64,000 nt of DNA from Candidatus Aenigmatarchaeota archaeon (lineage in GTDB: Archaea > Aenigmatarchaeota > Aenigmatarchaeia > GW2011-AR5), in NCBI GenBank assembly GCA_039091535.1, contig JAWCLW010000001.1, forward strand, positions 81,073 to 145,072, given 5' to 3'. The notes beneath the pieces were generated by a model that did not search any database, was not told the origin of the DNA, and saw only the letters and a list, made by a program, of their open reading frames with translations. Positions within the stretch are counted from its first letter, which is position 1. Each line of letters opens with the position of its first letter. Both the position numbers and the translations under genes were made by a program. Shown here one piece after another: positions 30,010-47,553 of this stretch.

Positions 30010-30645
30010 ATGTTTGATTGGAAAATAATCGTAACATCTATTGTTGTATTATTAATAATTCTGGTTTTTATTTCTATTGATCCGACTGTTTCAAATTTTT
30101 TTAATTCTGTTTTTGATAAGGTCTCGGGACTTTTCAGATTTGAAATTTTCAATGAAGGTAAGAATATCAAATTTTATCTTAATGTTAGCGACTATAAACC
30201 AATAAATTTCAAAACAAATATACCAACAAATATAACACTACAACCAATAGAGTTTTATGCTGTTTTGAAAGATGGAAGTATAAACACAACAAAAACGATT
30301 AGAATAATAAATTTCAAGGGTTCTGGATATATAGGTAATACAATAAACTTAGATGGTAATTTTGAAAAATTAGAAATTGGTGAAATAGGGTCATTTTCAA
30401 ATAGTAGGATTAAGGCAGATGGGACATTTTCTAGTGTTATTATAGAAAATATTGGATTAAAAAATCTAAAAATTGAAAATTCAACAGGCTCTTTAATTGT
30501 CAACGAAACAGAAATTGCTTTCTCTTTAAAAACAATAGAAATAGTCTCACCATTTGGTCAATTCTCATTCTCAAAAGGTATGAGTATTGATGGTTTTGCA
30601 AATAAAATTTCTATTCCCGAAGAAAAAATAATTTTGGGTTATTGA
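30010..30645 (+). CDS. N-terminally anchored hypothetical protein
   Basis: A single N-terminal TM helix (IVTSIVVLLIILVFISI) is followed by beta-rich sequence. No motif recognised. Confidence 0.5.
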   Translation: MFDWKIIVTSIVVLLIILVFISIDPTVSNFFNSVFDKVSGLFRFEIFNEGKNIKFYLNVSDYKPINFKTNIPTNITLQPIEFYAVLKDGSINTTKTIRIINFKGSGYIGNTINLDGNFEKLEIGEIGSFSNSRIKADGTFSSVIIENIGLKNLKIENSTGSLIVNETEIAFSLKTIEIVSPFGQFSFSKGMSIDGFANKISIPEEKIILGY

Positions 30646-30698
30646 AATTGTCAACCTTTTTAAACTTTTTCATACATTACTGATTGTTGGTAGATTTT

Positions 30699-31862: not shown

Positions 31863-32226
31863 AAATTATAAATGCGATAGATATTATTCCTATGCATTTG
31901 AAATTCACTGACTTATTCACATGTTCACAAAAAATTTTCTTTTGTGTTCGTTAGTTGATCAGAATTCTTTAATAGATTTTGTTAAATTAAAGAATATTTT
32001 CAAAAGAAAAAATAAATTTATCTTGCGAATCTGTTAATTGTAATGTATCTGTGTTGTATTTGTGATTATAAATATGTTAGTTTCTATAAAGTAGTGACAA
32101 ATGCATAAGTTTAAAAGGATTTGGTATAATTATATAATCTCTCAAGAAATTTTTGTTACCAAACAAAAGATATATTTATAAAGATTTTGTTTAATATGTA
32201 TAATGTTAAAAAAAGAGGGTATTGAT

Positions 32227-33051
32227 ATGGTTGTAAGTTCAAAAACATTGGATGCATTAAAAACGATTGGTTTAAATAAATATGAAAGGAATTTGTGGGT
32301 CGCACTTCTTTCAAGAGGGGCATCAACTGCTGGAGAATTATCTGAAATATCTAAAGTTCCTAGATCTAGATGTTATGATGTCTTAGAATCATTAGCTGCA
32401 AAAGGCTTTATTGTTGTTCAACCTGGAAAACCATTGAAATATGTGGCCATAAATCCACGAGAGGCATTTGAGCGTGTGAAGAAAAAGATACAGGAAGATG
32501 CTGTTGAAATGGTTGAAAAGATTAATAGATTAGTAAAAACTGATACAATTAAAGAGCTTGAGAGGCTTCATAAAGAAAATATAAAAACAGTACAACCTGA
32601 GGATTTATCAGGGTCTTTAAAAGGCCGATATGCAATGTTGCAACAAATTGAAACAATGTTCAAAAAAGCGAAAAAATCAATAAAGCTTATGACCACAGAA
32701 TCCGGTCTATTAGAATTGATGGAACATCATTCTTCTCTTTTGAAGAAAATTTCTGCAAATGGTGTTAAAATACAGATAGCTGCTCCTATAACAAATAAGA
32801 CATCTGAAGTAGTAAAAGAACTTTCAAAATATGCCGAAATAAGAAATATAATGGATGTCGAACATATTGAAAAACTTCTTGGTCGACTTTATGTTGTTGA
32901 TGGTAATGAGCTTGTTCTTGGACTTACAGATGATACAAAAACTCATCCAACTCAAGATGTTGCATTTTGGACACAAAGCTCACATGCAACTTCTAATGTC
33001 TTTGAACCTATGTTTAAATTGATGTGGGCTCATGCAAAACCAATTAAATAA
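32227..33051 (+). CDS. TrmB-family transcriptional regulator
   Basis: LKTIGLNKYERNLWVALLSRGASTAGELSEISKVPRSRCYDVLESLAAKGFIV matches the TrmB winged helix. The ATG at 32227 follows GAGGGT. Confidence 0.85.
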   Translation: MVVSSKTLDALKTIGLNKYERNLWVALLSRGASTAGELSEISKVPRSRCYDVLESLAAKGFIVVQPGKPLKYVAINPREAFERVKKKIQEDAVEMVEKINRLVKTDTIKELERLHKENIKTVQPEDLSGSLKGRYAMLQQIETMFKKAKKSIKLMTTESGLLELMEHHSSLLKKISANGVKIQIAAPITNKTSEVVKELSKYAEIRNIMDVEHIEKLLGRLYVVDGNELVLGLTDDTKTHPTQDVAFWTQSSHATSNVFEPMFKLMWAHAKPIK

Positions 33052-33259
33052 ATCTTAATTAAAGCTTCCAAAAACTTAACAATGATAAAATGGTAAGTAT
33101 TATCTTATCTTAACCAAAATAGAGTGGTTAGTTAGAAATAAGATTCCATCTATTTCTATTTTGATACTAGAAAATTACTAGAAGTCTTCAAGATAGTAAT
33201 CTTTTGTTACTTCATATTTCTATAATTTATTTATATAACTAAAAAACAAAAATATACTT

Positions 33260-34507
33260 ATGTCTGTAGATATTTTGCTTTTATCTAAAATAATTCTTGC
33301 ACTACTTTTAGGTATATTCATTGGAACAGAGCGTGAATATCATAAAGGAAAGGTTGGATTGGGTATAAGAACAACAGCATTTATATCATTAATAGGAATG
33401 CTATCAACATATTTTTCATTAATCTATAATTCATCTTTAATTATGTTATTTACATTATTTACTGTTGCTGGATTTTCTATTTCAATATTTTGGTACCGTG
33501 TCAAAGAGCAGTTGCATCATGTTGGGCTAACGTCCTCTGCAACAATCCTTGTAACATTTTTTATTGGTGCAATGGTTGCTGTGAATTTATTTATAGAATC
33601 GATAATCCTTTCTGTAGCTGTTTTTATTCTTCTCTTTTCAAAAAAAAATATTAAGCATAAAATAAAAAATCTTACAGAAGAAGAAATAGTAAGTGCAATA
33701 CAGTTTGCGATTGTGGCATTTGTTATATATCCATTTATACCAGATGAAAAATTTATTTTTGTTAATTTTAAAGAAGTTTGGCTAATTGTCATCTTGGTTT
33801 CATTAATGTCATTCCTTGGATTTCTTGCGATTAGAAGATTTGGTGATGTAAAAGGTGTTTTATTCACAAGCATATTTGGCGGCATACTTACAAGCGGTGC
33901 AACAACTGTTGCACTTATAAATAATTATAAGAAGGATAGAAAATTACTTAATCTTTTCTTAGTTGGTATACTTTTGACATCGCTTATAATGGTATTCAGA
34001 AATCTTATTGTTGGTTTTATAGTATCACATGATATAGGTATGCTTGTGCCATTTTTGAGGTATATAATCATAAGTATAGTATACGCAATATTTGTTTTTT
34101 ATTTCTTAATAAAAAGATTTCCACATATATCTAAAAGAAAACATAAGATAAATGTAAAGTCCCCATTTGCAATAAAGCCTGCTTTATATTTTGGGGCTAT
34201 ATTTGTTTTTATTTTATTTATATCAAAATTGGCTTTTTTATACTTTGGTGATCAAGGTGTTATTATAGTAAGCTTCTTTGGCGGATTGGTAAATAGTGCA
34301 GCAACAACCGCTTCGTCTGCAACGCTATTCATGCAAGGCTATATAGATATGACAATATTTGTTTATTCAATTCTTTTAGCAACTATAGCAAGCTGGATTG
34401 ATGGTGTATTTGTAGCATATTTGTTCAATGAGAAAAAACTCGCCACTGCATTATTTAAATATATGTTTATATTAGTGATTTTACTGCTTGGTGTTAGCTT
34501 GATTTGA
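33260..34507 (+). CDS. MgtC/SapB-family membrane protein with DUF4010-like C-terminal half
   Basis: LALLLGIFIGTEREYHKGKVGLGIRTTAFISL matches the MgtC N-terminal signature. The protein is polytopic throughout. Confidence 0.75.
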   Translation: MSVDILLLSKIILALLLGIFIGTEREYHKGKVGLGIRTTAFISLIGMLSTYFSLIYNSSLIMLFTLFTVAGFSISIFWYRVKEQLHHVGLTSSATILVTFFIGAMVAVNLFIESIILSVAVFILLFSKKNIKHKIKNLTEEEIVSAIQFAIVAFVIYPFIPDEKFIFVNFKEVWLIVILVSLMSFLGFLAIRRFGDVKGVLFTSIFGGILTSGATTVALINNYKKDRKLLNLFLVGILLTSLIMVFRNLIVGFIVSHDIGMLVPFLRYIIISIVYAIFVFYFLIKRFPHISKRKHKINVKSPFAIKPALYFGAIFVFILFISKLAFLYFGDQGVIIVSFFGGLVNSAATTASSATLFMQGYIDMTIFVYSILLATIASWIDGVFVAYLFNEKKLATALFKYMFILVILLLGVSLI

Positions 34508-34517
34508 GGTGACTAAA

Positions 34518-35150
34518 ATGAATCTCCCTAAAGAAATCGAGAAATTTGTAAAGGCTTCATGGATTTTTTCAAATGTCATATATTTGATTATAATAGACAA
34601 GAAATATGAAAAACATATCAAAGAAAAAATGAAAAATTACAATTTAATAATAATCCAAACTGAAGATTTCTTTAAGTCTATCATGGAATATGATACAAAA
34701 CTTTTGATAAGCATAAGAGATGGAAAAATACTTTTTGATCCATTTGGAGTTGTAGGCGTAATCAAAAGAAGTGTTAAAAAAGGTATTATTGCAGGGACAA
34801 AAGAATCGTTATTTAGAAAATTCATGATAATACATAGATATCTTAATGAAATAGAAAATATAAAATACCACGTTTTCAACAATATCTACATGTCTGTTGT
34901 TGAATGTGGTCAAGCAGCATTAATAGCAAGAGGCTACCCAATATCGATACCAAGAGATATACCAAAACATATGAAAAAATACTTTTTAGGTAATGGCTTG
35001 GAAAAAACACATATTACATACTGTGAAGAGATAATAAAATTATATAAAAAATTTGAGCATGGGAAAACTCATTTACCCAATGGAAGAAAATTAGATGAAC
35101 TTGCAAAAAAGGCAGAAATATTTAGAAATGCTGTGAAGTCGATACTATGA
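34518..35150 (+). CDS. nucleotidyltransferase-like paralog lacking the catalytic motif, with helical HEPN-like C-terminal half
   Basis: The C-terminal helix SVVECGQAALIARG parallels SNAATEAAQILLLFEG of the downstream NTase gene. An RKFMIIH (Rx5H-like) motif is present. I found no GS...DxD motif. It overlaps the next gene by ATGA. Confidence 0.4.
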   Translation: MNLPKEIEKFVKASWIFSNVIYLIIIDKKYEKHIKEKMKNYNLIIIQTEDFFKSIMEYDTKLLISIRDGKILFDPFGVVGVIKRSVKKGIIAGTKESLFRKFMIIHRYLNEIENIKYHVFNNIYMSVVECGQAALIARGYPISIPRDIPKHMKKYFLGNGLEKTHITYCEEIIKLYKKFEHGKTHLPNGRKLDELAKKAEIFRNAVKSIL

Positions 35151-35896
35151 TAGATATCAAAAAAATAAATAATTTGTTGAAGCCGTTGATGAAATACAGG
35201 AAATATATAGAAGGCATATATATCTATGGAAGTGTGCTCCAGAAGAAAAAAGCAAATGATATAGATATTCTAATAATCCTTGTTGATTATCCTATCATTG
35301 GTGATAAAATAATAAAATCTATAGAAAATAACATAAAAGAAATTGAAAAAAATGCTGAAAAAGATAACATAAATTTACATTTCCAGCCATTAAAACCGCT
35401 TGATTTATGGTGGAACCTACTTATTCAAGGCGAACCATGGGTTGTGACATCGCTTAAGAAAATATTAATACTTTATGATAAGCATGGTTTAATAAAAGAA
35501 GTTCATAATTTCATAAAAGATGGTATGCTTTATTTAAGAGAAGAAAAAGCGGATAAATTGCTAGAGAGATCGGACAACCTCATACTAAAGAATAGGGATT
35601 TACTTCTTGAGAGTATTGTTCATCTTTCAAATGCAGCAACAGAGGCTGCTCAAATACTTTTACTTTTTGAAGGCAAGCTTGTTATTAACAAGAGAAAAAT
35701 AGCAAGAGATCTTATGAAATATAGTAAAACACTCTCTGTAGGCAACTATATAGAAATTATAGACCTTGAAGAAAAATTTGTAAAAGGTGTTTTGAGTGAA
35801 TTCACAGGCGAAAATTTGGATTACTATTCAGATGCCATCAAGAATTTCATAAATAAAATAGAAGCATTAATCCACAAAAAATACAAAGAAAAATAA
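35147..35896 (+). CDS. minimal nucleotidyltransferase (Pol-beta superfamily) with helical C-terminal domain
   Basis: IYIYGSVLQKKKANDIDILII matches the GS-x9-DxD NTase signature. Confidence 0.7.
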   Translation: MIDIKKINNLLKPLMKYRKYIEGIYIYGSVLQKKKANDIDILIILVDYPIIGDKIIKSIENNIKEIEKNAEKDNINLHFQPLKPLDLWWNLLIQGEPWVVTSLKKILILYDKHGLIKEVHNFIKDGMLYLREEKADKLLERSDNLILKNRDLLLESIVHLSNAATEAAQILLLFEGKLVINKRKIARDLMKYSKTLSVGNYIEIIDLEEKFVKGVLSEFTGENLDYYSDAIKNFINKIEALIHKKYKEK

Positions 35897-35958
35897 TTTA
35901 TTATTTAAAAGTTGTAAAATTTATAAACTTTTCCTTACACATATAATTTGTGATTAAA

Positions 35959-36597
35959 ATGAAAGATATCGATGATCTTTATAGATTAAAAATTAATGAT
36001 GAAGTTTTGCAAGGTATTTTTACTTGGCAAACTGTAGTTATTGATGAAGGTATAAAAGATTATTTGTTGTCTGAAGAAAAAGTTGATGAATATATAAATC
36101 TTTTATATATAGAAACTGAAAAGGTATTGATGGATATGGCTGAATATAGTTGGAAAAAAGTTCCATGTAATTGTAATCTAGATGATTGGTTTCCCCATGC
36201 ACTTCAAGGTATGAATCTTTCTGAAGCTCTTGAGAAAAGATTAGTAACATGCTTTCATAGATCTATTTTATATCAATTAATGGTTCAACAACTTCAACCA
36301 TATGCGATTGGCGCAATAATGGAGGGGGAAGTAAGAGAAGGTGAATTTTGTGAAGGTCATGCATACAATATAGTTTTTATTCCACAAACAAAAAAGAGAT
36401 TTTTAGTTGATACAGCATTTTTGAATAATGGTCAACCAATTGTTGCAGATTATAGTTGTGTTGAAAAATTAGGAGAATACGAACAAATTACAATCATATT
36501 AAAAGATGGTAAAAAAAGAAAATATTCTGGATATATATTAGAATATTTAAAAGATCCGGAAAAAACAAAAAAACATTTTGAAAGCTTACTTATTTAA
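35959..36597 (+). CDS. transglutaminase-like / papain-fold putative cysteine peptidase
   Basis: A candidate Cys-His-Asp triad has the right order and spacing: VTCFHRSILYQLM ... EGHAYNIVFI ... FLVDTAF. The call is by eye only. Confidence 0.45.
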   Translation: MKDIDDLYRLKINDEVLQGIFTWQTVVIDEGIKDYLLSEEKVDEYINLLYIETEKVLMDMAEYSWKKVPCNCNLDDWFPHALQGMNLSEALEKRLVTCFHRSILYQLMVQQLQPYAIGAIMEGEVREGEFCEGHAYNIVFIPQTKKRFLVDTAFLNNGQPIVADYSCVEKLGEYEQITIILKDGKKRKYSGYILEYLKDPEKTKKHFESLLI

Positions 36598-37529
36598 ATT
36601 TTTCTTATCATTATTATTTCAAAATCTTTTATATACGGGATTTCAACTCTTAATTTTTCTAAAAACTTATCTAATTCTATATTTGACTTAAAATCAACTT
36701 CGAATTCAAGATCCGAATCACCTATAATTTCATATATTTTTGTTACATTTGGATTCTGGGAAAGATATTGAATTATTATTTTCTTTTTTAATGGGTTATT
36801 TAACGTTATCAAGATTTTGTATTTTTCATATCCTAATAAAGATGTATTTAGATTAGGTATAAATCCTTTTATTATACCTTTTGCTATAAGATTTCTCAAT
36901 CTATAATTTAATGTTGTTGATGGTATACCCAATATTTTAGATAATTCTGTTATTTCTATTCTAGCATTTTCTATTATCACATCTAAAATTTTATAGTCTG
37001 TTTCATCTATTTCATAAGTTTTGTGATCTCCTATAACAATTGCTTTATGCATTCTATGCAAATATTTATGTCCTAAAAAGTAAATCTTTGTTATTATAGA
37101 AAAATCCTTGTTATGTATGTATTTTGAGTTTTTTTCTATAAAATTATCATAAAATTCATAAAAATCTCTTGATTTTCTTGCCCATACAACTATTTCTATA
37201 TCCCATCGGCTTTGAACAAATGTTTGTATATCCACACCTTTTATTTTTTTCAAATCATCTACTATTCTTTTTCTATCATTTAGGCCTAGATTATACAAAT
37301 TGACAAGAAGTTTATAAGATTCATATCCTAAAGAGAAATAATCTATAATTGAAAAAAACCCTTTTATAAAGCCAGAATCGATTAATCTTTTTAACCTATA
37401 GTTAGCAACTTCTTTGCTTACCAAAATTGCTCTTGCTATATGTGAAATGCTTTCTCTTGAGTTTTTTTCCAATTCATAAATTAATTTCAAATCCTTTATA
37501 TCCAATTTAAAATATTTTTTATTTTCCAT
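36594..37529 (-). CDS. tandem (duplicated) Lrp/AsnC-type transcriptional regulator
   Basis: Two HTH_AsnC modules are present: LDIKDLKLIYELEKNSRESISHIARAILVSKEVANYRLKRLIDSGFIKG and IDETDYKILDVIIENARIEITELSKILGIPSTTLNYRLRNLIAKGIIKG. Each is followed by a RAM-like domain. The start is trimmed to the ATG at 37529. Confidence 0.75.
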   Translation of the reverse strand: MENKKYFKLDIKDLKLIYELEKNSRESISHIARAILVSKEVANYRLKRLIDSGFIKGFFSIIDYFSLGYESYKLLVNLYNLGLNDRKRIVDDLKKIKGVDIQTFVQSRWDIEIVVWARKSRDFYEFYDNFIEKNSKYIHNKDFSIITKIYFLGHKYLHRMHKAIVIGDHKTYEIDETDYKILDVIIENARIEITELSKILGIPSTTLNYRLRNLIAKGIIKGFIPNLNTSLLGYEKYKILITLNNPLKKKIIIQYLSQNPNVTKIYEIIGDSDLEFEVDFKSNIELDKFLEKLRVEIPYIKDFEIIMIRKI

Positions 37530-37699
37530 ATTTTTATTATATAACAATTTATTTATATATTTTTCGTTTTTTGAGTAAAAAATATAACAAAAACTTTTTA
37601 TATATGTTCTTATTAATAAGTAATATCTTTGGGGTGTACAAATTAAAACCGATAACATATTGATGTTTGAAAAAAGCCATAAAAAAATGGTGGAGAAAA

Positions 37700-38587
37700 A
37701 TGAAATCTGAAAAAATAATTTTGCAAAAACCAAAAAAAGAAAATTTGTCTAAAATGCCAGACTTAGTTAGAAAATATTATGAAACTATTGAGAATAAAAA
37801 TTACAATCCTAGAGGGAAGATTTTTAGCATAGAAATTAAACGTGAGAGTTGGGATTCAGGAACAGACGGCATGGCTTATTTTAATGAGCTAATAGTGGAG
37901 AAAGAAAATAAAGTAGTCTATAGGAGTGGAATGATGAAATATAGAGGAGCTTACAACTGGGAAATTGATGATCACGACGCCCACTTGTTTGATCCTTCAA
38001 TTTTAGAAGAAAAAAGTAATGAAGTAGTATTTGGATTGAGAACTGGTGCAGGAAAAATAAAGATATACAGATTAAAAGGGGATAAGCTAGAAAATCTTTA
38101 CACTTTTGACATTGATGGTTACAAGAAAAAGAAGGAAAGAAATGAGTTAATTGAAAAAATTCTTGAAGATCCAGATGAATGGGTCAAGTATATTAAAAAT
38201 GAGCAAGGACATCATTGGTATGTTGATTATTGGAGTATGGAGGATTTGAAAAATAAAAAAGAAGAAGATAATAAATGGAGGGACGATTACCAAATTCTTG
38301 ATGATGGAAATTTGATTATAGCACTAGCGAAACATTACGATAGAGACTATGATCCTATCGCAGATTATTACAACGTGTACTTTTGGAAAAAAGGGGTTGG
38401 TATAGCAAAATCAAAAATTTATTATACAGGACTTAGCCACCCTTCGTTTGAAAAATTTTATATAATTGGTGTTGGATTTTTAGAACCAGCATCTTATGAT
38501 AAAGATAAACAGATAGTTATAGCAAAAATAGGAAATAAGGGACAAAACAAAGTAATAGAACATGAATTTGAGTTAGAAGAAAAGTAA
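37700..38587 (+). CDS. island gene A: uncharacterised Trp/Tyr/Asp-rich protein
   Basis: The ATG at 37700 follows GGTGGAG. No known domain recognised. The C-terminal part resembles gene C (ADYYNVYFWKKGVG versus YGYDTVYLVWKDKKGK). Confidence 0.6.
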   Translation: MKSEKIILQKPKKENLSKMPDLVRKYYETIENKNYNPRGKIFSIEIKRESWDSGTDGMAYFNELIVEKENKVVYRSGMMKYRGAYNWEIDDHDAHLFDPSILEEKSNEVVFGLRTGAGKIKIYRLKGDKLENLYTFDIDGYKKKKERNELIEKILEDPDEWVKYIKNEQGHHWYVDYWSMEDLKNKKEEDNKWRDDYQILDDGNLIIALAKHYDRDYDPIADYYNVYFWKKGVGIAKSKIYYTGLSHPSFEKFYIIGVGFLEPASYDKDKQIVIAKIGNKGQNKVIEHEFELEEK

Positions 38588-38630
38588 GGAGTTAGAAAAT
38601 TCAAAGAAGTATAATAACAAAAACAAAAGC

Positions 38631-38674
38631 CAATCGAGCACGACGCGATGAAGTAAATGGAGGGGTGAAGAAAA
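38631..38674 (+). repeat. junction element copy 1
   Basis: caatcGAGCACGACGCGATGAAGTAAATGGAGGGGTGAAGaaaa lies directly before the ATG at 38675. Confidence 0.9.
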
Positions 38675-39322
38675 ATGAAGAAAATGAAAATATTACTTGT
38701 GGAAGATCAAGAAGAAAATAGAAGAGCGGCTCAGCAATATTTTACTCAGAAAGATCATGTTCATGTAGAGTATGCTATTGATTATAATCAAGCAGTGGAA
38801 AAATTAAATAAAGAATTATATGATGGTATAATCACAGATATTTTCATGCCTCAGGAAACAGGAACAAATGAACGTCGTTTAGGAATTGAAGCTTATAAAA
38901 AGATCTATTTTAAAATATATGATGATTTTGAGAGAGAAGCTGCAAAGGAAGAAGGCTCCTACTTCATCCATACTATAGATCACGTATTAAATTGCTGTTA
39001 TGAATTAAAAGAGAAATTATTTGAAGGCAACAACAATCAGCCTTTAGGAGTCCTTATTGCAGAGAAAGCAGAAGAACTGGGAATCCCCTGTGTCATAGCA
39101 ACTTCATTGTTTCATCATCATGTGATGGCTGAACCAGTTTTCTATTATGTTTATCATAGTGATTCTTTAAAAAAGTGTAAAATATATGAAGGTGAGATAG
39201 TAACTGATGGCAGTGGAAGGAACTTAAAGACAACTCAAGAATATTGGGATGAAGTTTATACTGCTTTACTATCAAGAATCAAAGAAGAAAAAGGGGAAGC
39301 AGAGCACAACGCGATGAAGTAA
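38675..39322 (+). CDS. island gene B: receiver (REC/CheY-like) domain protein with atypical C-terminal half
   Basis: KILLVEDQEENRRAAQQYF...AIDYNQAVEKLNKELYDGIITDIFMP aligns residue-for-residue with CheY beta1-beta3 (acidic pair ED, phospho-acceptor D in TDIFMP). A long insert follows before a possible beta4 (VIATS). Confidence 0.65.
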   Translation: MKKMKILLVEDQEENRRAAQQYFTQKDHVHVEYAIDYNQAVEKLNKELYDGIITDIFMPQETGTNERRLGIEAYKKIYFKIYDDFEREAAKEEGSYFIHTIDHVLNCCYELKEKLFEGNNNQPLGVLIAEKAEELGIPCVIATSLFHHHVMAEPVFYYVYHSDSLKKCKIYEGEIVTDGSGRNLKTTQEYWDEVYTALLSRIKEEKGEAEHNAMK

Positions 39323-39339
39323 ATGGAGGGGTGAAGAAA
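39296..39339 (+). repeat. junction element copy 2 (its 5' half encodes the last 7 codons of gene B)
   Basis: gaagcaGAGCACAACGCGATGAAGTAAATGGAGGGGTGAAGaaa lies directly before the ATG at 39340. Confidence 0.9.
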
Positions 39340-40119
39340 ATGGAAAATTTCGAAAAGTATGTGGAAGAAGCGATGAATAAAATTGTTAAAACTTATCAGC
39401 ATGACCATCCATTGTATCAAGAAACGCACATAGTAAAAAGCATTATTAACAAAGATAAGCAGATAGCTGCGTTTGTATTGTTCGAACAGATAGATACTGA
39501 TAGATACACCCCTAATGGAGATGGTTGGCGAGGAGATCAGTATAGATATAGTGTTTGGTATATAAGAGGATTTGAAGAGCCAAAACAAATTTACGAAGAT
39601 CATGCATGGAAAAGAAGGTCGATTTCTGGTTTAACAGGAACAAAAGGCAGAGATCCTTACATTGGCCTAGAGGAGCTGCTTGAGGACGGGGTCATTGTAA
39701 CAATAACTCCTGAAGGAACCCAGGATGCTTATGGCGATCTTTCACAAGTAAAAGTAAAGATAACATTTGACGGCAAAATTGAAGAGCCTGAAGATTTCAT
39801 TGAGCGAGCAAAAAATCTGGTTAAAAGAATAGGACCAAAACTAGGATATGATTATTTAAGTGGAGAAAAACAGCTCGAAGGAAAAAATGTTGCTGCATTT
39901 GTCTGGGCAGCTGAAAATGGCTCGACTTATGGATATGATACAGTTTATCTTGTATGGAAAGATAAAAAGGGAAAAATAAACTATGAAGAACTTACAAATT
40001 CAAGGTATGACAAGGCTTATCTTAGCATCGATGAGCTTCGAGAGGAAGGGGATAAAATAATAATAAAAGTAAAAGGTAGGAAGTACGAGAGAAGCAAGAA
40101 AGAGCTAGGGCTAAAATAA
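39340..40119 (+). CDS. island gene C: uncharacterised protein, possible distant paralog of gene A
   Basis: The ATG at 39340 sits 7 nt after GGAGGGGTGA. No known domain recognised. Confidence 0.6.
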   Translation: MENFEKYVEEAMNKIVKTYQHDHPLYQETHIVKSIINKDKQIAAFVLFEQIDTDRYTPNGDGWRGDQYRYSVWYIRGFEEPKQIYEDHAWKRRSISGLTGTKGRDPYIGLEELLEDGVIVTITPEGTQDAYGDLSQVKVKITFDGKIEEPEDFIERAKNLVKRIGPKLGYDYLSGEKQLEGKNVAAFVWAAENGSTYGYDTVYLVWKDKKGKINYEELTNSRYDKAYLSIDELREEGDKIIIKVKGRKYERSKKELGLK

Positions 40120-40206
40120 ACTGTTTGGGCAGTAAGGCAAGTGACCAACCTAAAGAATTTTTGTGTTATAGAAAAAAACAGATAAAGGAATATTAATAAA
40201 AAGATA

Positions 40207-40257
40207 GAAGCAGAATGAGCACGACGCGATGAAGTAAATGGAAGGAGGTAAGGGAAA
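40207..40257 (+). repeat. junction element copy 3
   Basis: gaagcagaatGAGCACGACGCGATGAAGTAAATGGAAGGAGGTAAGggaaa lies directly before the ATG at 40258. Confidence 0.9.
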
Positions 40258-40977
40258 ATGGAAAAGGAAATAATTGAAAAAATAAAAGAAAATCCTGGAA
40301 AGATTTTGCTTACCACAGATGTTCATGGTGATAAGGAGAATCTTATTAAAGCAATGAAGATTGGCAAAGAAAAAGGAGCCAAAATTGCATTTGATCTTGG
40401 AGATACAGAACTAGGACAAAAAATATATGATAAGATTGCAAGAGACATTGGTTTAGAGGGAGGTATAATACTTGAAACTTTTTATGATCATATTTTAAAT
40501 GGAGAAAAGGACATTAAAGAAATAAGCAAATTATTTATAAACAATGGGACAATACTTCCAGTTCATTATGTTATATACAATGACAAGTTTGAAAAATATG
40601 TTATTAGTGAAGGTTCAAGAGAACTTAGTGAAGATATAATGGAAAGAAATTATAATAAAAATGATCTTGAAAAAATAATAGAAAGATCACGTTTGGAACC
40701 ATTTTTAATAATTAAAGGAGATGACCACAAGGCTTATATAGGAAAAGTTAAAAACGTAGAAAAAATATTCAGTGTGAAGTATGTGCCTCGTTCTGAATTA
40801 ACTGATAAAGAACTAAAATTATTTGAACTAAAAGATGAAACAGAAATAAATGAACCTGGATTATATGTTATTAATCCTGGGTTTATATTTCGGGATCAGG
40901 AAGTTTTATTCTCATGCATGGTTTTAGATTGTACTAGAAAAGGTTATTTCAAGATAGAGTACATTCCATTGATTTAA
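40258..40977 (+). CDS. island gene D: divergent YfcE/MJ0936-type metallophosphoesterase-like protein
   Basis: KILLTTDVHGD (DxH motif), AFDLGD (GD motif), IIKGDDH in place of GHTH, YVINPGF (NPGS-like), and a C-terminal beta-strand pattern. The GNHD-type motif is not evident. Confidence 0.5.
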   Translation: MEKEIIEKIKENPGKILLTTDVHGDKENLIKAMKIGKEKGAKIAFDLGDTELGQKIYDKIARDIGLEGGIILETFYDHILNGEKDIKEISKLFINNGTILPVHYVIYNDKFEKYVISEGSRELSEDIMERNYNKNDLEKIIERSRLEPFLIIKGDDHKAYIGKVKNVEKIFSVKYVPRSELTDKELKLFELKDETEINEPGLYVINPGFIFRDQEVLFSCMVLDCTRKGYFKIEYIPLI

Positions 40978-41006
40978 TAAAACAATAAATCACCGGGGTG
41001 TGATGC

Positions 41007-41047
41007 TAATCGAGCACGATGCAGAGGGGAGGGGGGGGGAGATAAAA
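41007..41047 (+). repeat. junction element copy 4 (5' half conserved, 3' half replaced by G-rich run)
   Basis: taatcGAGCACGATGCAGAGGGGA-G9-AGATAAAA lies directly before the ATG at 41048. It shares AATCGAGCACGA with copy 1. Confidence 0.7.
41031..41039 (+). repeat. G9 homopolymer in the ribosome-binding region of gene E
   Basis: Nine consecutive G read directly from the sequence. The tract ends 8 nt upstream of the ATG at 41048. Confidence 0.9.
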
Positions 41048-41581
41048 ATGAAAAATTATAAACAACTTTACTTGAAGAGAATAAAAGAAAAAAATGATGA
41101 TAAAGAAGTAAAGAAACAACTAGAAGACATAATAAACAGAGAAACAGTAGGAGTCAAAAAATTTGGAAAAATTGACTATGGTGAATGTGATTGTGATTGG
41201 TGTCAGAAAATCCATGGAGATTATATTTACAGTGGTTTATTAAATTACAAGCCAAGCAGCATGGATAGAATTGGTCATTATGCAGCCTTTATATTAAATA
41301 AGGAAACACAAATTATGGGCGCTGGCTTACAAATATTACAAGATTTTGGAGTAATAGAAAAAGGCAAAATTTACAGATATGGATTTAGAACAATCAGTGA
41401 TGGAAGGACTTTCACTAAATATAATTCATATTACATTGGTGTTGCAATATTGGAGATAGATGAAAAAAATCACGAAGTCACAATTGGATTAGGATCAGCT
41501 GATGATTACTTAGACGTTTATAAATTAAATACTAAAAAAGGAGAATTTGAAAAGATAATGAGCAGAATAAAATTAAAATAA
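41048..41581 (+). CDS. island gene E: uncharacterised protein with CxCxxCxxxH cluster
   Basis: MKNYKQLYLKR... with GECDCDWCQKIHGD. The frame is also open from the ATG at 41003 through the junction element (MLIEHDAEGRGGEIK-M...). Confidence 0.55.
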   Translation: MKNYKQLYLKRIKEKNDDKEVKKQLEDIINRETVGVKKFGKIDYGECDCDWCQKIHGDYIYSGLLNYKPSSMDRIGHYAAFILNKETQIMGAGLQILQDFGVIEKGKIYRYGFRTISDGRTFTKYNSYYIGVAILEIDEKNHEVTIGLGSADDYLDVYKLNTKKGEFEKIMSRIKLK

Positions 41582-41781
41582 TGGTATATGAACTTTCCGG
41601 GACAAAGAAAGAGCTTGATAATGTTATTAATTTGCTGAATAAAGACAGGAATATTTGTTTATGTTTAAAATTCGGTTAGATTCATCAAGATGATTATTTA
41701 CAATACATTAAATTCCGATTTAATGATAAAAATAATAAAAATTTATTAGTCATGAAATATAATAAATAAGATGTGAATAAA

Positions 41782-42630
41782 ATGGAAAAAATAAATGCAG
41801 ATGAACTGTACATGCCACAAACAGAGATATGGAAATGGAACCTAAAAAAATATGCTAAGGAAAATAGCTTAAAAGAAATAAAGAATACAAGTTTTTATCT
41901 AACAAAATTTGAGGATTTTCCAACAGCAGATAATATATCCGTATTACTTGTAAGAATAGCATTAGCAGATTTAGAAGGTAGATTATCAAAAGAAAAGAAA
42001 TATGTTGTTCTTCAAACCTATTATGATGATGGTGACTTAAGTACTCTCGATATTGTCAGACTTCCATTAGATTTACATAAAGAAATTAAAAGAGAGTATT
42101 TGAATAAGATTTTAACTGAAAATATAAGTAGACAGCCAAATCTTTTGCTTTCCAAAGATACATTTTCAAGGTATTTGACAGCAGGTGGGTTTATTGATGG
42201 TAATGAAAAGAATATAGAGTTTTATGGGTCAAGCAGTGATTTCTCTAATAAATTTTCTATATATTCTGTAAATGATATCGTAGCGTATCTTGTAAAAGAA
42301 TCTGGGTTATTTGAAAATGTCAAAAGCAAAGATGAAGGTTTAGAAAAAGGGGAAGAATATATCAATAGATGTCTCGATCTAATGAAAAAATATAAATTAA
42401 AGTCAGAATTCTATTCACAATTAATTGATTTATATCAGCTTGAAAAAATAAGAAATAAAGAATATGTCGGCTCACATATTCTTTATTCAATAGCTATGAT
42501 GAAAAGCATAGATAAAGCAATAAAAGAAGATAAAGACTTTCTACAAGCATTTATAGAAGAAGGTACAGAAGGAATTTGCAGGGAAATGTTAATAAGAGGC
42601 ATTGCAGAAATATTAAAAACAAGTGATTAA
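41782..42630 (+). CDS. island gene F: uncharacterised protein (282 aa)
   Basis: Clean ORF on the same strand. It is not preceded by the junction element. No domain recognised. Confidence 0.5.
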   Translation: MEKINADELYMPQTEIWKWNLKKYAKENSLKEIKNTSFYLTKFEDFPTADNISVLLVRIALADLEGRLSKEKKYVVLQTYYDDGDLSTLDIVRLPLDLHKEIKREYLNKILTENISRQPNLLLSKDTFSRYLTAGGFIDGNEKNIEFYGSSSDFSNKFSIYSVNDIVAYLVKESGLFENVKSKDEGLEKGEEYINRCLDLMKKYKLKSEFYSQLIDLYQLEKIRNKEYVGSHILYSIAMMKSIDKAIKEDKDFLQAFIEEGTEGICREMLIRGIAEILKTSD

Positions 42631-42789
42631 AATATTACATAAAATTTTGATAGCAGATGTAAGATGATTCATGAAAATAGCAGTATTTATGCAATTGAAC
42701 AGATAAGAAATATTGAACAAATAAAGGAAGAATAAAACAAATGAATTTTATCTTTCATTTTTTAATCTTTTTCTCTGTATTTATTTTTC

Positions 42790-44343
42790 ATGTCATTTGA
42801 TGCTATTTATAATGAATTGATAGAAAAAATAAAAAACAAAGAAATAAGAAATCAGAAAGAATTGGAAAAAGAAAAAATAATAATTGCAAAAAAATATAAC
42901 ATTGACAGGGTAATAAAGAATGCAGATCTCATTGCTTTTCTTGAAAAAAAAGACAAAAATTATAAAAATTTAAAGAAATTCTTAAAAACAAAGCCTGTAC
43001 GAACTGCTTCTGGTGTTGCAAATATCGCTGTGATGTGGATAGATAAAAATAATACTACATGTCCTGGACAATGTATCTATTGTCCACAAGGCAAATATTC
43101 CCCAAAAAGTTATACAGGTACAGAGCCTGCAACCATGCGAGCTATACAAACGAATTATGACCCATATATGCAAGTGAAAACAAGATTAAGACAACTAGAA
43201 ATTATTGGTCATCCGACAGACAAGTGTGAATTAATTATAATGGGTGGGACATTTATCTCAACATCAAAAAAGTTTCAGGAAAATTTTATAAAAAATTGTT
43301 TAGATGCAATGAATGGATGTAAAAGTAAAAATTTGAAAGAAGCTCAAAAAAGAAATGAGAAAGCAAGACATCGTTGCATTGGTCTGACAATAGAGACACG
43401 GGCAGATTATTGTAAAAAGGAACATATAGAACAGATGTTGAAATTAGGTTGCACACGTGTTGAATTAGGTGTGCAAACAACATCTGACAAAATATTAGAA
43501 AAAATAAATCGTGGCTATAGCACAAAAGAAAATATAGAAGCAATTAGACTGTTAAAAAAAGCTGGTTTGAAAGTATGCGTTCATTGGATGCCTGGATTAA
43601 CGGGATTATTTGGAAAAATAAACAAGAGAAAAGAAATAGAAATGTTTAAAGAATTATTTGAAAACAAGGATTTTCGACCAGATGAACTGAAAATATACCC
43701 AACATTGGTAATCCCTGGGACCAAGTTATACGAACTTTGGAAAAATAATGAATATAAACCATTAACAATTAATCAAACAATTAATTTATTAATAGAGATG
43801 AAAAAAATCGTACCAAAATATGTTAGGATAAAAAGAGTAATGCGTGATATCTCCCATAAAGAAGTTGTTGCAGGACCAAATGCAACAAACCTAAGACAAT
43901 TAATACATATGAAAATGAAAGAATCTAGAATCAAATGTAATTGTATAAGATGTAGAGAAGTTGGCCTGCAAAATAAAAAACCAATTAATGTGAAATTAAA
44001 AAAATTTGAATATGAGGCATCAAATGGCAAAGAAATATTCCTGAGCTTCGAGGATAATAAAAACAATCTGCTTTTGGCTTTTTTGCGTTTGCGAATTGAT
44101 GATGATAATTTTGCAAAAGTTAGGGAATTACATGTTTATGGTCCAATGATACCTATAGGTAAACGAGAAAGAACAGCAATACAACATAAAGGTTATGGAA
44201 AAAAATTGCTGAAGAATGCTGAAAAAATTGCAAAAGAATACAAAAAAGATGGTGTCCAAATCACTTCTGGTATTGGTGCGCGTGATTACTATAGAAAATT
44301 TGGGTATAAATTAAAAGAATTCTATATGATAAAAAGTCTTTAA
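42790..44343 (+). CDS. elp3: Elp3-type radical-SAM / acetyltransferase tRNA modification enzyme
   Basis: A radical-SAM cluster CPGQCIYCP, the conserved Elp3 core, and a C-terminal GNAT (HKGYGKKLLKNAE) are present. Confidence 0.9.
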   Translation: MSFDAIYNELIEKIKNKEIRNQKELEKEKIIIAKKYNIDRVIKNADLIAFLEKKDKNYKNLKKFLKTKPVRTASGVANIAVMWIDKNNTTCPGQCIYCPQGKYSPKSYTGTEPATMRAIQTNYDPYMQVKTRLRQLEIIGHPTDKCELIIMGGTFISTSKKFQENFIKNCLDAMNGCKSKNLKEAQKRNEKARHRCIGLTIETRADYCKKEHIEQMLKLGCTRVELGVQTTSDKILEKINRGYSTKENIEAIRLLKKAGLKVCVHWMPGLTGLFGKINKRKEIEMFKELFENKDFRPDELKIYPTLVIPGTKLYELWKNNEYKPLTINQTINLLIEMKKIVPKYVRIKRVMRDISHKEVVAGPNATNLRQLIHMKMKESRIKCNCIRCREVGLQNKKPINVKLKKFEYEASNGKEIFLSFEDNKNNLLLAFLRLRIDDDNFAKVRELHVYGPMIPIGKRERTAIQHKGYGKKLLKNAEKIAKEYKKDGVQITSGIGARDYYRKFGYKLKEFYMIKSL

Positions 44344-44410
44344 TCCCTTTCTGTATAATTATTAATGTGGATGATGGCTCATTCTGCTTGACATACTTAT
44401 GGTGTTATTT

Positions 44411-44638
44411 ATGCCAATAGAAGATGAGATGCGTGCTGAAATGAAAAAACTTGAGAAAGAAATAGAACTAATAGATGATGAGTTAGAAAAATTACATAAC
44501 AAAATCTTGCATCTTATCATGATAAGAAAAAAGAAAGAACGTGACTTAAAAGTATTGAGATCATCATTTGGATACGAAGAAGAAATGGAAAAAGAGATAC
44601 AAACAACATTAGCAAAATTATTGAAAGAGAAGATTTGA
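44411..44638 (+). CDS. small coiled-coil protein
   Basis: A 75-aa Glu/Lys-rich heptad-like ORF. Function unknown. Confidence 0.35.
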   Translation: MPIEDEMRAEMKKLEKEIELIDDELEKLHNKILHLIMIRKKKERDLKVLRSSFGYEEEMEKEIQTTLAKLLKEKI

Positions 44639-44655
44639 ATTTATAAATTCCGGTT

Positions 44656-45312
44656 TTAAGATTTCTTTTGGATTTTATTTTTCTTATTTTTATGATGATA
44701 ATAAATAAGACCAATAGTAAATATTATTATCAATACTGATATCATATTTTCTATTTTATCTATTTGCAATGCTATAGAGAAAAATGCATTACCAACAAAC
44801 CAACCAAGAAACCCTAAAATAAATGCCCTAGGTATTGCGCCAATAAATGTGGCAATTGTATATTTTTTCCAAGAAAGTTGAAATACACCAGCCGCTAATG
44901 AAACAAGGGACATTGGAACAATAGGAATCAAACGAAGAATAATAATTGTATACCATGTTTTTCTACCTTTTCCAAACTTTTTTCCAATTTTTTCTATTTC
45001 TTTCCATTCAACATCAAAATATCTATGGAACTTTTTTATTGTATGCTTGCCGCCAAAATAACCAATACCATAAGCAAAGAAAGAGCCAATAGTTGCTGCA
45101 ATCGCAGCTGGAAGAACAACTATAAATATCATTGGGATGATTGCTTCAAAGAATGTCAGATTTGAATCGATTAGTATAAATCCAGCAGCCATTTGTATAA
45201 GTGGTGATGGTATTGGTATTATTATTTCTTCTATTAGAACTCCGGCAAAGACACTCCATGCTCCATATGATTGTATTGATGCAATCAACCATGCCATAAA
45301 TTCTGAAAGCAT
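44656..45312 (-). CDS. DedA/VTT-family membrane protein
   Basis: YGAWSVFAGVLIEEIIIPIPSPLIQMAAGF and later GxxxR-containing helices are typical of DedA. Confidence 0.7.
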   Translation of the reverse strand: MLSEFMAWLIASIQSYGAWSVFAGVLIEEIIIPIPSPLIQMAAGFILIDSNLTFFEAIIPMIFIVVLPAAIAATIGSFFAYGIGYFGGKHTIKKFHRYFDVEWKEIEKIGKKFGKGRKTWYTIIILRLIPIVPMSLVSLAAGVFQLSWKKYTIATFIGAIPRAFILGFLGWFVGNAFFSIALQIDKIENMISVLIIIFTIGLIYYHHKNKKNKIQKKS

Positions 45313-45361
45313 TTAATAAATAAAAAAATAAGTACTTAAATTCTTATTTAAAACTTTAATT

Positions 45362-47230
45362 TTAACCAATAAAAACAGGTCTTTTTGTCAATAATCTTGG
45401 CAAAGATAATTTCTTGAAAGGGAAATCTTTTGTCTTTTCTCTAATGTATTTTATTATTTCATTTAATTCCATTTTTTCAATCTTTCCACTTTGTCTAAAT
45501 CTAACAGCCAATTTACCACTCTCCTTTTCTTTCTCACCTATAACAATAGTTAATGGTACCCATTCAACTTCTGCGTCTCTTATTTTTTTTGCTATGCTTT
45601 CTGTGCGATCATCTATATCCACACGTATGTTATTTTTATCAAATTCATTTGCAATTTCTTCTGCCCATTTTATAAACGAATCATTAACAGGACACAATCT
45701 TACTTGTGTTGGCGAGAGCCATAATGGAAATATTGCTCTCTGTAAGTCTTGCATATAAGCCTTTTCAAGCAATGCATATATCACTCGTTCTATTGCACCA
45801 GAAGGTGAGCAATGTAAAATAATCGGATATTTCTTTTTGTTATCCGAATCCATAAATTGTATTCCATATCTTTCTGCATTCTCAACATCTATTTGGTCTG
45901 TTGTCAATGCAGCCGCCTTATCTAAAGCATCAATAAAATTAAATTCATATTTAAAAACAAAATAAAAGAATTTTTTATCCCACATTTCTAAAAGTGCTGG
46001 TTTTCCCCAATTCTTTACAAGTGCTTGTACAAAATCTTTGTGTTCATCATAAAAATCCTTTACAACCCTTATTGCTAATTCTAAATCATCTTTTATTGAT
46101 AGACCAACACCCTCTTCTATATTTTTTGAAAGTTCAAATCTTCGCATTAATTCTTCTTTTGCTTGTTTTATATCTTTACAGAAAGCATGAACATCTGGCA
46201 TTGTAAATGTTCTCAATCTGCGCAATCCAGCAAGCTCACCTCTTTGCTCAACACGAAAGCTATATTTTGTAAGTTCATAAATACGGAAAGGTAAGTTCCT
46301 GTAAGATATTGTAGCTTTTTGTGACATCAAAAACTGACCAAAACATGCTGAGAAACGCAAAAATACACGTTTATTTGGAGTTTTTATTGTATATTGTCTT
46401 GCTGGAAATCGATTAAGATAATTCTTCAGTGCAGGATGCTCATAATCATACATTATTGGTGTCTCGACTTCCATTCCACCATATTCAATAACTTTTTGTG
46501 TTACAAAATCTTCAAGAAGAGATTTTATTAATCTCCCTTTTGGCATATATCTAAAATTTCCTGGGTCGCTTGCCTCCTCATAATCAACAAGTTCTAATTT
46601 TCTCATTAATTTTATATGCGGTGGTTCTTTTTCAACAATCCTACTTTTCTTTATTTCATATTTTGCAAGCTTCTCAAGATTTTTATGTTTTGAAAAATCA
46701 AATCCATCTATCTTTTTACCATCATACTCTATTTTTTGCATATTTCCATCCGGTTCAATAATATACCAATCTGACTTTAACTTTTCCTCTTTTTTTATAG
46801 CTTCGGATACTTCTTTTGTTTCATCTGCACCAATCTCTCTAGAAAGTTCAGAAAGTGGATGACCTTTGCATTTTATGTTAAATGATTTATACCACCCAAA
46901 AGGCGCTCTATGAACATCGTAATCTTTTTTTAGTAAAGATTCTATTTTTTTCAATAAATCTAAAGCGATAGATGGTGAAGCAGGTTTTGATGATAAATGA
47001 ACAAATGGGTATATTACAATAGTTTTGACCTTGACCTGTTCTGCAACATTCTTTATTTCTTTTACTGTTTTTTCGACAACTGACTTTTCATCCCCTTCTT
47101 CTGCTGATGCAAAAACAACTAAACAATCATTTATCTTTATTTTTTCCTTTTTCACTTTTTCAGCAGATGCTATTGCCTTTGTTTTTGGTTCATATTCTAT
47201 AAAATCTGAATGTATCAATAATATTTTCAT
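45362..47230 (-). CDS. thrS: threonyl-tRNA synthetase with archaeal N-terminal editing domain
   Basis: MKILLIHSDFIEYEP... is the archaeal DTD-like editing domain. It is followed by class II motifs (FRVEQRGELAGLRRLRTFTMPD) and an anticodon-binding domain. Confidence 0.9.
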   Translation of the reverse strand: MKILLIHSDFIEYEPKTKAIASAEKVKKEKIKINDCLVVFASAEEGDEKSVVEKTVKEIKNVAEQVKVKTIVIYPFVHLSSKPASPSIALDLLKKIESLLKKDYDVHRAPFGWYKSFNIKCKGHPLSELSREIGADETKEVSEAIKKEEKLKSDWYIIEPDGNMQKIEYDGKKIDGFDFSKHKNLEKLAKYEIKKSRIVEKEPPHIKLMRKLELVDYEEASDPGNFRYMPKGRLIKSLLEDFVTQKVIEYGGMEVETPIMYDYEHPALKNYLNRFPARQYTIKTPNKRVFLRFSACFGQFLMSQKATISYRNLPFRIYELTKYSFRVEQRGELAGLRRLRTFTMPDVHAFCKDIKQAKEELMRRFELSKNIEEGVGLSIKDDLELAIRVVKDFYDEHKDFVQALVKNWGKPALLEMWDKKFFYFVFKYEFNFIDALDKAAALTTDQIDVENAERYGIQFMDSDNKKKYPIILHCSPSGAIERVIYALLEKAYMQDLQRAIFPLWLSPTQVRLCPVNDSFIKWAEEIANEFDKNNIRVDIDDRTESIAKKIRDAEVEWVPLTIVIGEKEKESGKLAVRFRQSGKIEKMELNEIIKYIREKTKDFPFKKLSLPRLLTKRPVFIG

Positions 47231-47386: not shown

Positions 47387-47413
47387 CTTTTACAAACGAA
47401 AAATTCTAAGTAT

Positions 47414-47499
47414 AGCCCCGTGGTGTAGTGGTCAAAATTTTTGACTAAGCATATCGGGCTTTGGACCCGACGACGACGGTTCGAATCCGTCCGGGGCTA
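47414..47499 (+). tRNA. tRNA-Gln(UUG) with 13-nt hairpin insertion in the D-loop
   Basis: AGCCCCG TG GTGT AGTGGTC[AAAATTTTTGACT]AA GCAT A TCGGG CTTTGGA CCCGA CGAC GACGG TTCGAAT CCGTC CGGGGCT A. All four stems pair and the anticodon is TTG. The D-loop is 22 nt instead of about 9. Confidence 0.85.
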
Positions 47500-47553
47500 T
47501 AATAATAAAAAGATGTTGAATTCGGTCTAAGAATAATGTTAGGAGGTTTTAAA

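Follow-up and report, generated by a model that had tools for sequence, protein, structure and literature searches.

A GC-rich box with a Shine–Dalgarno sequence shared by the starts of unrelated genes in an archaeal operon

The DNA analysed here (the window, a stretch of 64 kb with a GC content of about 29%) comes from a metagenome-assembled genome (MAG) deposited at NCBI under the label Ca. Aenigmatarchaeota. Within it lies an operon, with genes A to E, whose gene starts share one short element: a 17-nt GC-rich box (AGCACGACGCGATGAAG), which stands out in DNA so poor in GC, followed by a short AT-rich link and then a strong Shine–Dalgarno (SD) sequence whose A-rich spacer reaches to the start codon. 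On the forward strand, the 26-mer GAGCACGACGCGATGAAGTAAATGGA occurs at 38636 and 40217 with 0 mismatches and at 39302 with 1 mismatch, against an expected count of 0 in 100 dinucleotide-preserving shuffles, and TCGAGCACGA is found again at 41010, in a half-copy 5′ of gene E. These copies, numbered 1 to 4, run up to the ATG codons at 38675 (B), 39340 (C), 40258 (D) and 41048 (E), and all intact copies contain the SD sequence and leave 0 nt to the start codon (Table 1). The original prediction, made from the letters of the sequence, had described such a four-fold junction sequence, and the three copies of the 26-mer and the 5′ half-copy, each at a start codon, confirm it. The coding contexts it listed are also as described, with copy 2 encoding the end of B (..EAEHNAMK*), copy 1 lying in the frame of A after three stops and copy 4 open in the frame of E.

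Table 1. Copies of the element, genes and candidate transcription signals at the locus (window coordinates; L012 is an assembly of a related Pacearchaeota MAG).
Feature	Coordinates	Strand	Description
Copy 0	37676..37699	+	Decayed, 5′ of gene A; GCCATAAAAAAATGGTGGAGAAAA; aligned to the intact copy before the L012 A orthologue; 3′ part retained (AAATGGTGGAGAAAA), GC box eroded to GCCATAAAAAA
Gene A	37700..38587	+	295 aa, no known family
TATA-like octamer	38610..38617	+	TATAATAA; exactly 18 nt 5′ of copy 1
Copy 1	38636..38674	+	5′ of gene B; GC box 38637-38653; ATG-AAG-TAA 38648-38656; SD GGAGGGGTGA 38659-38668
Gene B	38675..39322	+	REC-like (receiver domain); last 7 codons within copy 2
Copy 2	39302..39339	+	5′ of gene C; box with G7A; overlaps 3′ end of B
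Gene C	39340..40119	+	All-beta protein, function unassigned; conserved anchor of cluster
T-rich run	40158..40167	+	TTTTTGTGTT; 3′ of gene C; candidate archaeal terminator
TATA-like octamer	40191..40198	+	TATTAATA; exactly 18 nt 5′ of copy 3
Copy 3	40217..40257	+	5′ of gene D; box intact; SD part different (GGAAGGAGGTAAGGGAAA)
Gene D	40258..40977	+	ORFan
Copy 4	41005..41047	+	5′ of gene E; 5′ part only (GCTAATCGAGCACGATGC), then G-rich SD; G9 run 41031-41039
Gene E	41048..41581	+	177 aa, CxCxxC motif, rare family

The copies resemble one another in a mosaic fashion: 1 and 3 agree in the far 5′ flank, 2 and 3 in GAAGCAGA, and 1 and 2 in the SD sequence, and the remnant in copy 4 (41005-41022) is matched by nhmmer at E = 0.4. 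The G9 homopolymer between this half-copy and the ATG of E is rare at 29% GC, and the G-run of the SD part differs among copies (G4, G5 and G4+G9); to judge by its letters, the tract may be slippage-prone and so alter SD strength or spacing.

Neither chance nor a generic ribosome-binding context accounts for the repeat. When the 45 nt upstream of each of the 53 gene models in the window were compared in all 1378 pairs, the longest exact strings in common had a median length of 6 nt and a 99th percentile of 11 nt, against 31 nt for B/C, 26 nt for B/D and 19 nt for C/D. SD sequences of the GGAGG type are nearly limited to B, C, D and E, and the other genes of the window have mostly AT-rich, SD-less upstream regions of the leaderless type. 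An exact scan for GAGCACNNNGCGATGAAGTAAATGG in one genome per species (185,579 species) matched one other genome, the Pacearchaeota MAG JAWAFA01, and there, across the whole genome, only at the one equivalent locus; likewise, all copies in the window sit in the one operon, and an nhmmer profile of six copies retrieved no additional copies from any of the loci examined. The 25-mer had zero matches in IMG/VR viral contigs. Nine matches to ACGCGATGAAGTAAATGGA in JGI metagenomes fell in coding DNA of unrelated organisms with 36–53% GC, and nine matches to the 17-mer box in IMG/VR contigs were all unrelated, on contigs with 57–69% GC; both sets, lying in unrelated and GC-richer DNA, were put down to chance. 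That the copies might be an assembly artefact from collapsed or duplicated reads, a risk acknowledged from the outset, has next to no chance of being true: the copies carry point changes and have unique flanks, the Logan assembly of SRR27730043 reproduces copies 3 and 4 at 100% identity over 39622-42388, and the element recurs in a second MAG, in both of its assemblies, and in a third genome (an ENA contig).

The genes that follow the copies have little in common. Searches of Pfam, PHROGs, PADLOC and NCBIfam gave zero family matches for A, C, D, E and F, and in the whole operon recognized nothing but a receiver (REC) domain in B, of which the N-terminal half is present (Pfam Response_reg, E = 2e-9). 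Gene A has five relatives in total, with amino-acid identities of 80% in L012 and 51% in L011, and B is 51% identical to its L011 counterpart. The relatives of C number 65, mostly from DPANN archaea with one labelled as a bacterium of the candidate phyla radiation (CPR); its all-beta structure model has a pLDDT of 92 and no meaningful neighbour in the PDB (TM-scores ≤ 0.33), and the family has no member in viral contigs. D matches itself alone among 5.8 billion protein clusters, so that the databases do not support its earlier description as phosphoesterase-like, and E has 5 distant relatives among 1.84 billion representatives. The claim that these genes are mutually unrelated is borne out at the sequence level by profile comparisons: hhalign found no homology of A with C, of E with A or C, or of D with the REC family, and tandem duplication and hidden paralogy were rejected on these grounds. 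A BLASTP match between B and D (E = 0.002 over 79 aa) is not convincing.

Comparison with related loci places the element in an evolutionary context. It is present in a Pacearchaeota MAG represented by two assemblies (L012 and L013; A 80% identical in amino acids and 88.7% in nucleotides), where the order is s56 – element – A – element – X – decayed element – B′, B′ being another REC-like gene, and in L023, where C (67%) stands alone after a 260-nt intergenic region and AGCACGACGCGATGAAGcAAAcGaGGAGGTAAAATAAAATG lies directly 5′ of it. The box is absent from L011/L022 (A 51%, B 51% and C 69% in amino acids; s59 – REC – A – B – C), from L016-18 (C 76%) and L020 (C 68%), which both have a B-like gene before C, from L019 (C 71%), with other small genes 5′ of C, from L024/L025 (C 66%), where an Ocnus-like gene precedes C and further genes follow, and from L014/L015, which have A alone (86% and 80% in nucleotides, respectively).

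In L023, all 17 positions of the box are unchanged directly 5′ of C, in a genome where the coding DNA of C is about 70–75% identical to that of the window; the sequence 5′ of the box is unalignable, and of 24 positions in the SD part about 8 are different. Taken together, the six intact copies have 2 changes in the 102 positions of the box, and their SD part is variable (copy 3, L012 copy 1 and L023). Furthermore, the box is found in three coding contexts, at the end of B (frame a), at the end of s56 (frame c) and in non-coding DNA (copies 1 and 3). Survival as a single copy, stronger conservation of the box than of the SD and retention in several coding contexts form the signature of a sequence-specific cis element. 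In every genome that carries it, the element is also found at the 5′ end of C: in copy 2, in L012 copy 2, which is followed by 11 codons of C, and in L023. This makes the C leader its likeliest home, and the copies before A, B, D and E secondary.

In two relatives the operon begins with a small conserved ORF that contains an ELEI motif, s56 in L012 (9841-10011) and s59 in L011 (507-686). The tail of s56 coincides with the element, read in a third frame (RTRRDEVNGG), and an ORF of this type has been lost from the window. A 23-codon ORF (MALELDDEIKKIARRDEANEEVK) at L023 6925-6999 reads the box in the same frame as s56. Unusual arginine codons would make only a weak argument, as CGA and CGC together account for 11% of the Arg codons in the window.

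The second MAG also records what may happen between copies. In L012, the intergenic region 3′ of A is 97–98% identical to that of the window, and gene X (10963-11745) opens with the first 11 codons of C (MKNFEKYVEEA) and is unrelated thereafter; it looks like the head of C fused to another gene by deletion or replacement. L012 copy 2 is a hybrid that combines the 5′ flank and the G7 of window copy 1 with the spacer and the downstream 33 nt of window copy 2, and gene B is absent from between these parts. The outgroup L011 has A-B-C, which makes this the ancestral order, and the state in L012 appears to be the outcome expected of a crossover between two copies with loss of B. The repeats thus seem to have had real consequences for gene content. 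Turnover of the genes between copies, which the original prediction had envisaged, stands in so far as the content does differ in L012 and the breakpoint fits recombination, but not in so far as it implied free cassettes: A-B-C is ancestral, being common to L011 at 50–69% amino-acid identity, and the B-C pair is widespread among DPANN relatives without the box, and A-B-C is an old gene order rather than random cargo. Behind the C-derived head, X has another ATG in frame, which is provided with an SD-like sequence of its own (GAAGGGAAGAAA).

Gene starts in the cluster have been homogenised elsewhere, too, with other sequences. In L024 (300-348 and 652-700), and also in L025, the starts of the Ocnus-like gene and of C share 39 nt at 97% identity, comprising the SD spacer, the ATG and eight codons (MTNENQNQ), with weaker similarity before two more genes; this is an independent case. 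Two paralogous REC-like genes of L011 (685-739 and 2463-2517) are 98% identical over 42 nt, from the end of the SD spacer through the ATG and the first 13 codons (MENKKLEILVVED), and AGGAGGTTAAAGAAAAATGG is common to four junctions. Homogenisation of junctions around the SD and ATG is thus a recurrent property of the cluster, with lineage-specific sequences, and such recurrence favours ectopic recombination, or gene conversion, among cistron starts as the mechanism of copying. A descent of the element from the ancestral B-C junction is at best tentative: relative to the L011 junction it resembles about 37 extra nucleotides, and what alignment there is to L011 is weak (shuffle p ~0.04) and does not keep the register of the protein alignment.

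At the RNA level, the element appears as an open stretch and not as a folded signal. Six copies folded with their flanks, none of them significantly more stable than shuffled sequence, gave z-scores from −0.66 (the half-copy 4) to +1.28, all five intact copies being positive, and the alignment fold of the copies reached −0.28 kcal/mol with zero covariation. No inverted repeats, terminal or other, involve the element; at the Rfam gathering threshold a tRNA alone was matched in the window, and an E-value scan of 37500-41800 returned just matches with E > 1, located elsewhere. The conserved structure that had been suggested as worth looking for is, by these measures, absent. A K-turn or C/D-box reading of GCGAUGA...GUGA was also rejected, as the flanking stems are absent and GUGA is missing in copy 3 and in L023. 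The unstructured, purine-rich RNA suits an accessible initiation region, and it counts against a riboswitch, an attC site, a REP element or a terminator. A mini-ORF had also been noted within the element. An upstream ATG-AAG followed by a stop is common to all intact copies, 6–25 nt before the main ATG and with the SD inside or just after the mini-ORF, but the two-codon form is not conserved: five copies have ATG-AAG-TAA (MK*), whereas L023 has ATG AAG CAA ACG AGG AGG TAA (MKQTRR*). No SD was seen upstream of the mini-ORF by direct reading.

Some copies may lie downstream of promoters. Over the 33 nt on their 5′ side, copies 1 and 3 agree at about 67% of positions, and a TATA-like octamer is placed 18 nt 5′ of L012 copy 2 just as it is in front of these two. 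The usual archaeal spacing between TATA box and start would set transcription initiation at about element position 5-7, in which case the element would be the 5′ untranslated region of the B and D transcripts. Internal promoters are thus possible for some copies on sequence grounds, but copy 2 and L012 copy 1 lie within coding sequence and have no TATA-like sequence at 18 nt, so a promoter is not a feature common to all copies.

The explanation we prefer, with a confidence that stops just short of even, is that the element is a cis-acting leader native to C that was copied to neighbouring starts by ectopic recombination, and that its repeats also drive gene loss and replacement. Its home would be the 5′ end of C, the anchor of a REC-containing cluster in some DPANN archaea. 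In the lineage of the window and L012, the leader would have spread to the starts of A, B, D and E, and in L012 also to those of X and B′, by ectopic homologous recombination or gene conversion that was probably seeded by the similarity in SD, spacer and ATG seen at cluster junctions in relatives such as L011. Each cistron would in this way be given the same strong, accessible initiation site, in a genome in which most genes have no SD, and the element would act at the level of translation. The box would most likely be bound by a putative trans-acting factor, protein or small RNA, placing all cistrons under one control, and the direct repeats would serve as substrates for deletion or replacement of the genes between them. 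The original prediction had offered either a recombination adapter or an RNA-level signal; each appears partly right, given the rearrangement in L012 and the footprint of the box in L023, but the former is not accompanied by a recombinase nor the latter by an RNA structure. A bolder form of the idea, in which the box is the site of a dedicated trans factor, possibly an uncharacterised protein of the cluster, and box and SD together are a portable 'expression plug' that recombines with other gene starts and so recruits new genes, ORFans such as D among them, to the control of a DPANN signalling operon, strikes us as decidedly unlikely.

Several points weigh against the leader native to C. The box is absent in the C relatives closest in sequence (L016, 76%; L019, 71%; L011/L022, 69%; L020, 68%), and is therefore dispensable for expression of C, and its patchy distribution could instead reflect transfer of a short patch. 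The box is found in three genomes only, which keeps the conservation statistics thin, and the chance of an unchanged box in L023 is about 0.03, an estimate for which divergence was taken as uniform along the L023 copy. Not every cistron needs the box, given the decay of copies 0 and 4. Last, the action of the box is something that we purely infer.

Much of the same evidence can be read without giving the box any function. Because junctions of the cluster share SD, spacer and ATG, gene conversion, perhaps GC-biased, could have swept one variant through the operon as a neutral by-product of recombination. We consider this somewhat unlikely, though the mosaic similarity between copies, the decay of copies 0 and 4 and of L012 copy 3, the close relatives that manage without the box, and the homogenisation of L024 and L011 with unrelated sequences, reaching 3′ into coding DNA instead of 5′, all agree with it. 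What it does not explain is L023, where a single copy with no conversion partner has kept the box at 17/17 across about 30% coding divergence between unalignable flanks, or why conservation is higher in the box than in the SD-ATG core, where conversion would be seeded. A function in DNA is another option: the element might be the initially transcribed region, or the operator, of internal promoters, each copy marking a transcription start with a repressor or activator sitting over it. The octamers before copies 1 and 3 and L012 copy 2, the CA and CG dinucleotides at element position 5-7, the spacers before B (88 nt) and D (138 nt), which are long for this compact genome, the T-run after C, and the Lrp- or TrmB-type regulators that lie divergently beside the operon in the window, L012 and L019 speak for it. 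Still, we judge it unlikely: an octamer of this kind is missing from copy 2 and L012 copy 1, which lie in coding sequence, TATA-like strings arise by chance in AT-rich DNA, the box is without the dyad symmetry that dimeric archaeal regulators usually require, and the adjoining regulators belong to different families in different genomes.

A dedicated cassette adapter, similar to an integron attC site or to the PeSL element of phages, would account for the recruitment of D, E and X, as well as for the difference in gene content between window and L012, the breakpoints within or beside copies, the status of D as an ORFan, E as rare and X as new, and the operon's flanks, which differ between the two MAGs. 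It is very unlikely all the same. No integrase or recombinase domain was found in the genes from 30010 to 47230, about 8 kb on each side, or in the 20-kb L012 locus, which makes an integron-like adapter unlikely; inverted repeats and a hairpin are absent; A-B-C is an old, conserved order; X keeps 11 codons of C, and a replacement so imprecise is not site-specific; and in L023 the box is a single copy before a stand-alone C. Highly improbable, finally, is a coding origin, in which the box would be the 3′ end of an s56-family gene, or a frameshift linker, copied with the SD of the next gene. L012 copy 1 does encode the s56 tail (..NRTRRDEVNGG..), the 23-codon ORF of L023 runs over the box in the same frame (..IARRDEANEEVK*), several differences between L023 and the window 3′ of the box are synonymous in the s56 frame, and that frame is open into C in copy 2 and L012 copy 2. 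Yet the L011 s59 homologue has a different tail, a stop at the 5′ border of copy 3 interrupts the s56 frame, which in copy 1 lacks a start codon and does not match the frame of B, a slippery heptamer is absent, and the box is identical at all three codon positions, which implies a constraint on nucleotides rather than on amino acids.

The element falls outside every described family tested. Integrons carry attC sites of 57–141 nt, whose imperfect inverted repeats (R″/L″ and L′/R′) form a hairpin, 3′ of each cassette and next to IntI and attI. As in an integron, unrelated genes in one orientation are separated by a recurring site, and the cargo varies in part among relatives, here with B lost, X new and D an ORFan; unlike attC, the element has no inverted repeats, hairpin or integrase, and its A-B-C core is old and fixed, being kept in L011, with B-C widespread. 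Miniature inverted-repeat transposable elements and other small mobile repeats are typified by terminal inverted repeats, target-site duplications and many copies dispersed in the genome; the element has no terminal inverted repeats and is confined to a single locus in the window and L012 genome. Repetitive extragenic palindromes (REP/BIME), which are GC-rich and lie between cistrons, differ in their stable stem-loop. The boundary 'linkers' of lambdoid phages, short homologies at gene boundaries in Botstein's modular theory, similarly permit the swapping of non-homologous genes by homologous recombination, but there the exchange is between phage genomes, and here the copies lie within one operon and a footprint is conserved in single copy. 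In bicistronic designs and translational coupling, a short upstream ORF contains or precedes the SD of the main gene. The ATG-AAG and stop before the real ATG, the SD inside or after them and the end of B within copy 2 recall such leaders; the mini-ORF, by contrast, has no SD of its own and varies in length, and the GC box lies mostly upstream of it. JUMPstart/ops, a leader element of bacterial polysaccharide and conjugation operons that is read by RfaH, is likewise a short, non-palindromic and conserved leader common to linked non-homologous genes, but it is bacterial, is found once per operon leader and not per cistron, and has no sequence similarity to the element; we know of no RfaH-type specialisation here.

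The closest parallel in function is offered by the PeSL cassettes of T4-type phages, which combine a sigma70 promoter with a terminator stem-loop (Arbiol et al. 2010, PMC2839356). Both are short conserved expression signals in one orientation before unrelated, often ORFan genes in a variable region (PMC2839356), and in both recombination between neighbouring copies deletes, inserts or replaces genes, a process that we infer here from the sequence for B in L012. The element differs in having no stem-loop, in a core made of GC box and SD with a promoter suspected for two copies only, and in its setting, with few copies in one operon of a cellular DPANN host; mini-circles are described for PeSL.

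The control of gene expression is almost unknown in DPANN archaea, which are uncultured or barely cultured, and the 17-nt box is a specific candidate cis-element for them. The locus would further illustrate how short shared initiation regions can act as patches of homology that add, delete and replace genes without a recombinase in a small genome, and the independent homogenisation in L011 and L024 suggests that this is a general property of the cluster. Were the box non-functional, the operon would still illustrate clearly how non-coding junctions between non-homologous genes evolve in concert, a case of more limited interest; were it a portable 'expression plug', it would be an integrase-free cellular counterpart of the phage PeSL cassettes.

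The neighbours of the operon are ordinary archaeal genes, among them Elp3, MgtC, TrmB (32227-33051), an Lrp-like regulator and a threonyl-tRNA synthetase that has the archaeal editing domain. The product of the gene divergent from A (36594-37658, reverse strand) is a regulator of the Lrp/AsnC type that contains two stretches of HTH_24, seemingly through tandem fusion, and TrmB-type regulators take the equivalent place in L012 and L019. The region 34518-35896, which includes a 210-aa protein and a Polbeta-type nucleotidyltransferase, is homologous to genes 3′ of C in L011 (5490-7398) and L022 (2819-4299), and genes that lie 5′ of the operon in the window are thus 3′ genes in these relatives, in a neighbourhood conserved but rearranged. 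In L014 (1-110 and 984-1109) and L015, the homologue of gene A follows a sequence resembling TTGACA-17 nt-TATAAT and precedes a GC hairpin with a T-run, signals that are bacterial in style. One member of the C family, P0049, is labelled Ca. Tagabacteria, and, going by these family members, DPANN archaea and CPR bacteria may have the module in common. Outside the operon, an 88-nt tRNA gene lies at 47413-47500 of the window; ARAGORN calls it tRNA-Ala with the anticodon 'agc' and Rfam confirms a tRNA, its length is suggestive of an intron, and the anticodon may have been miscalled.

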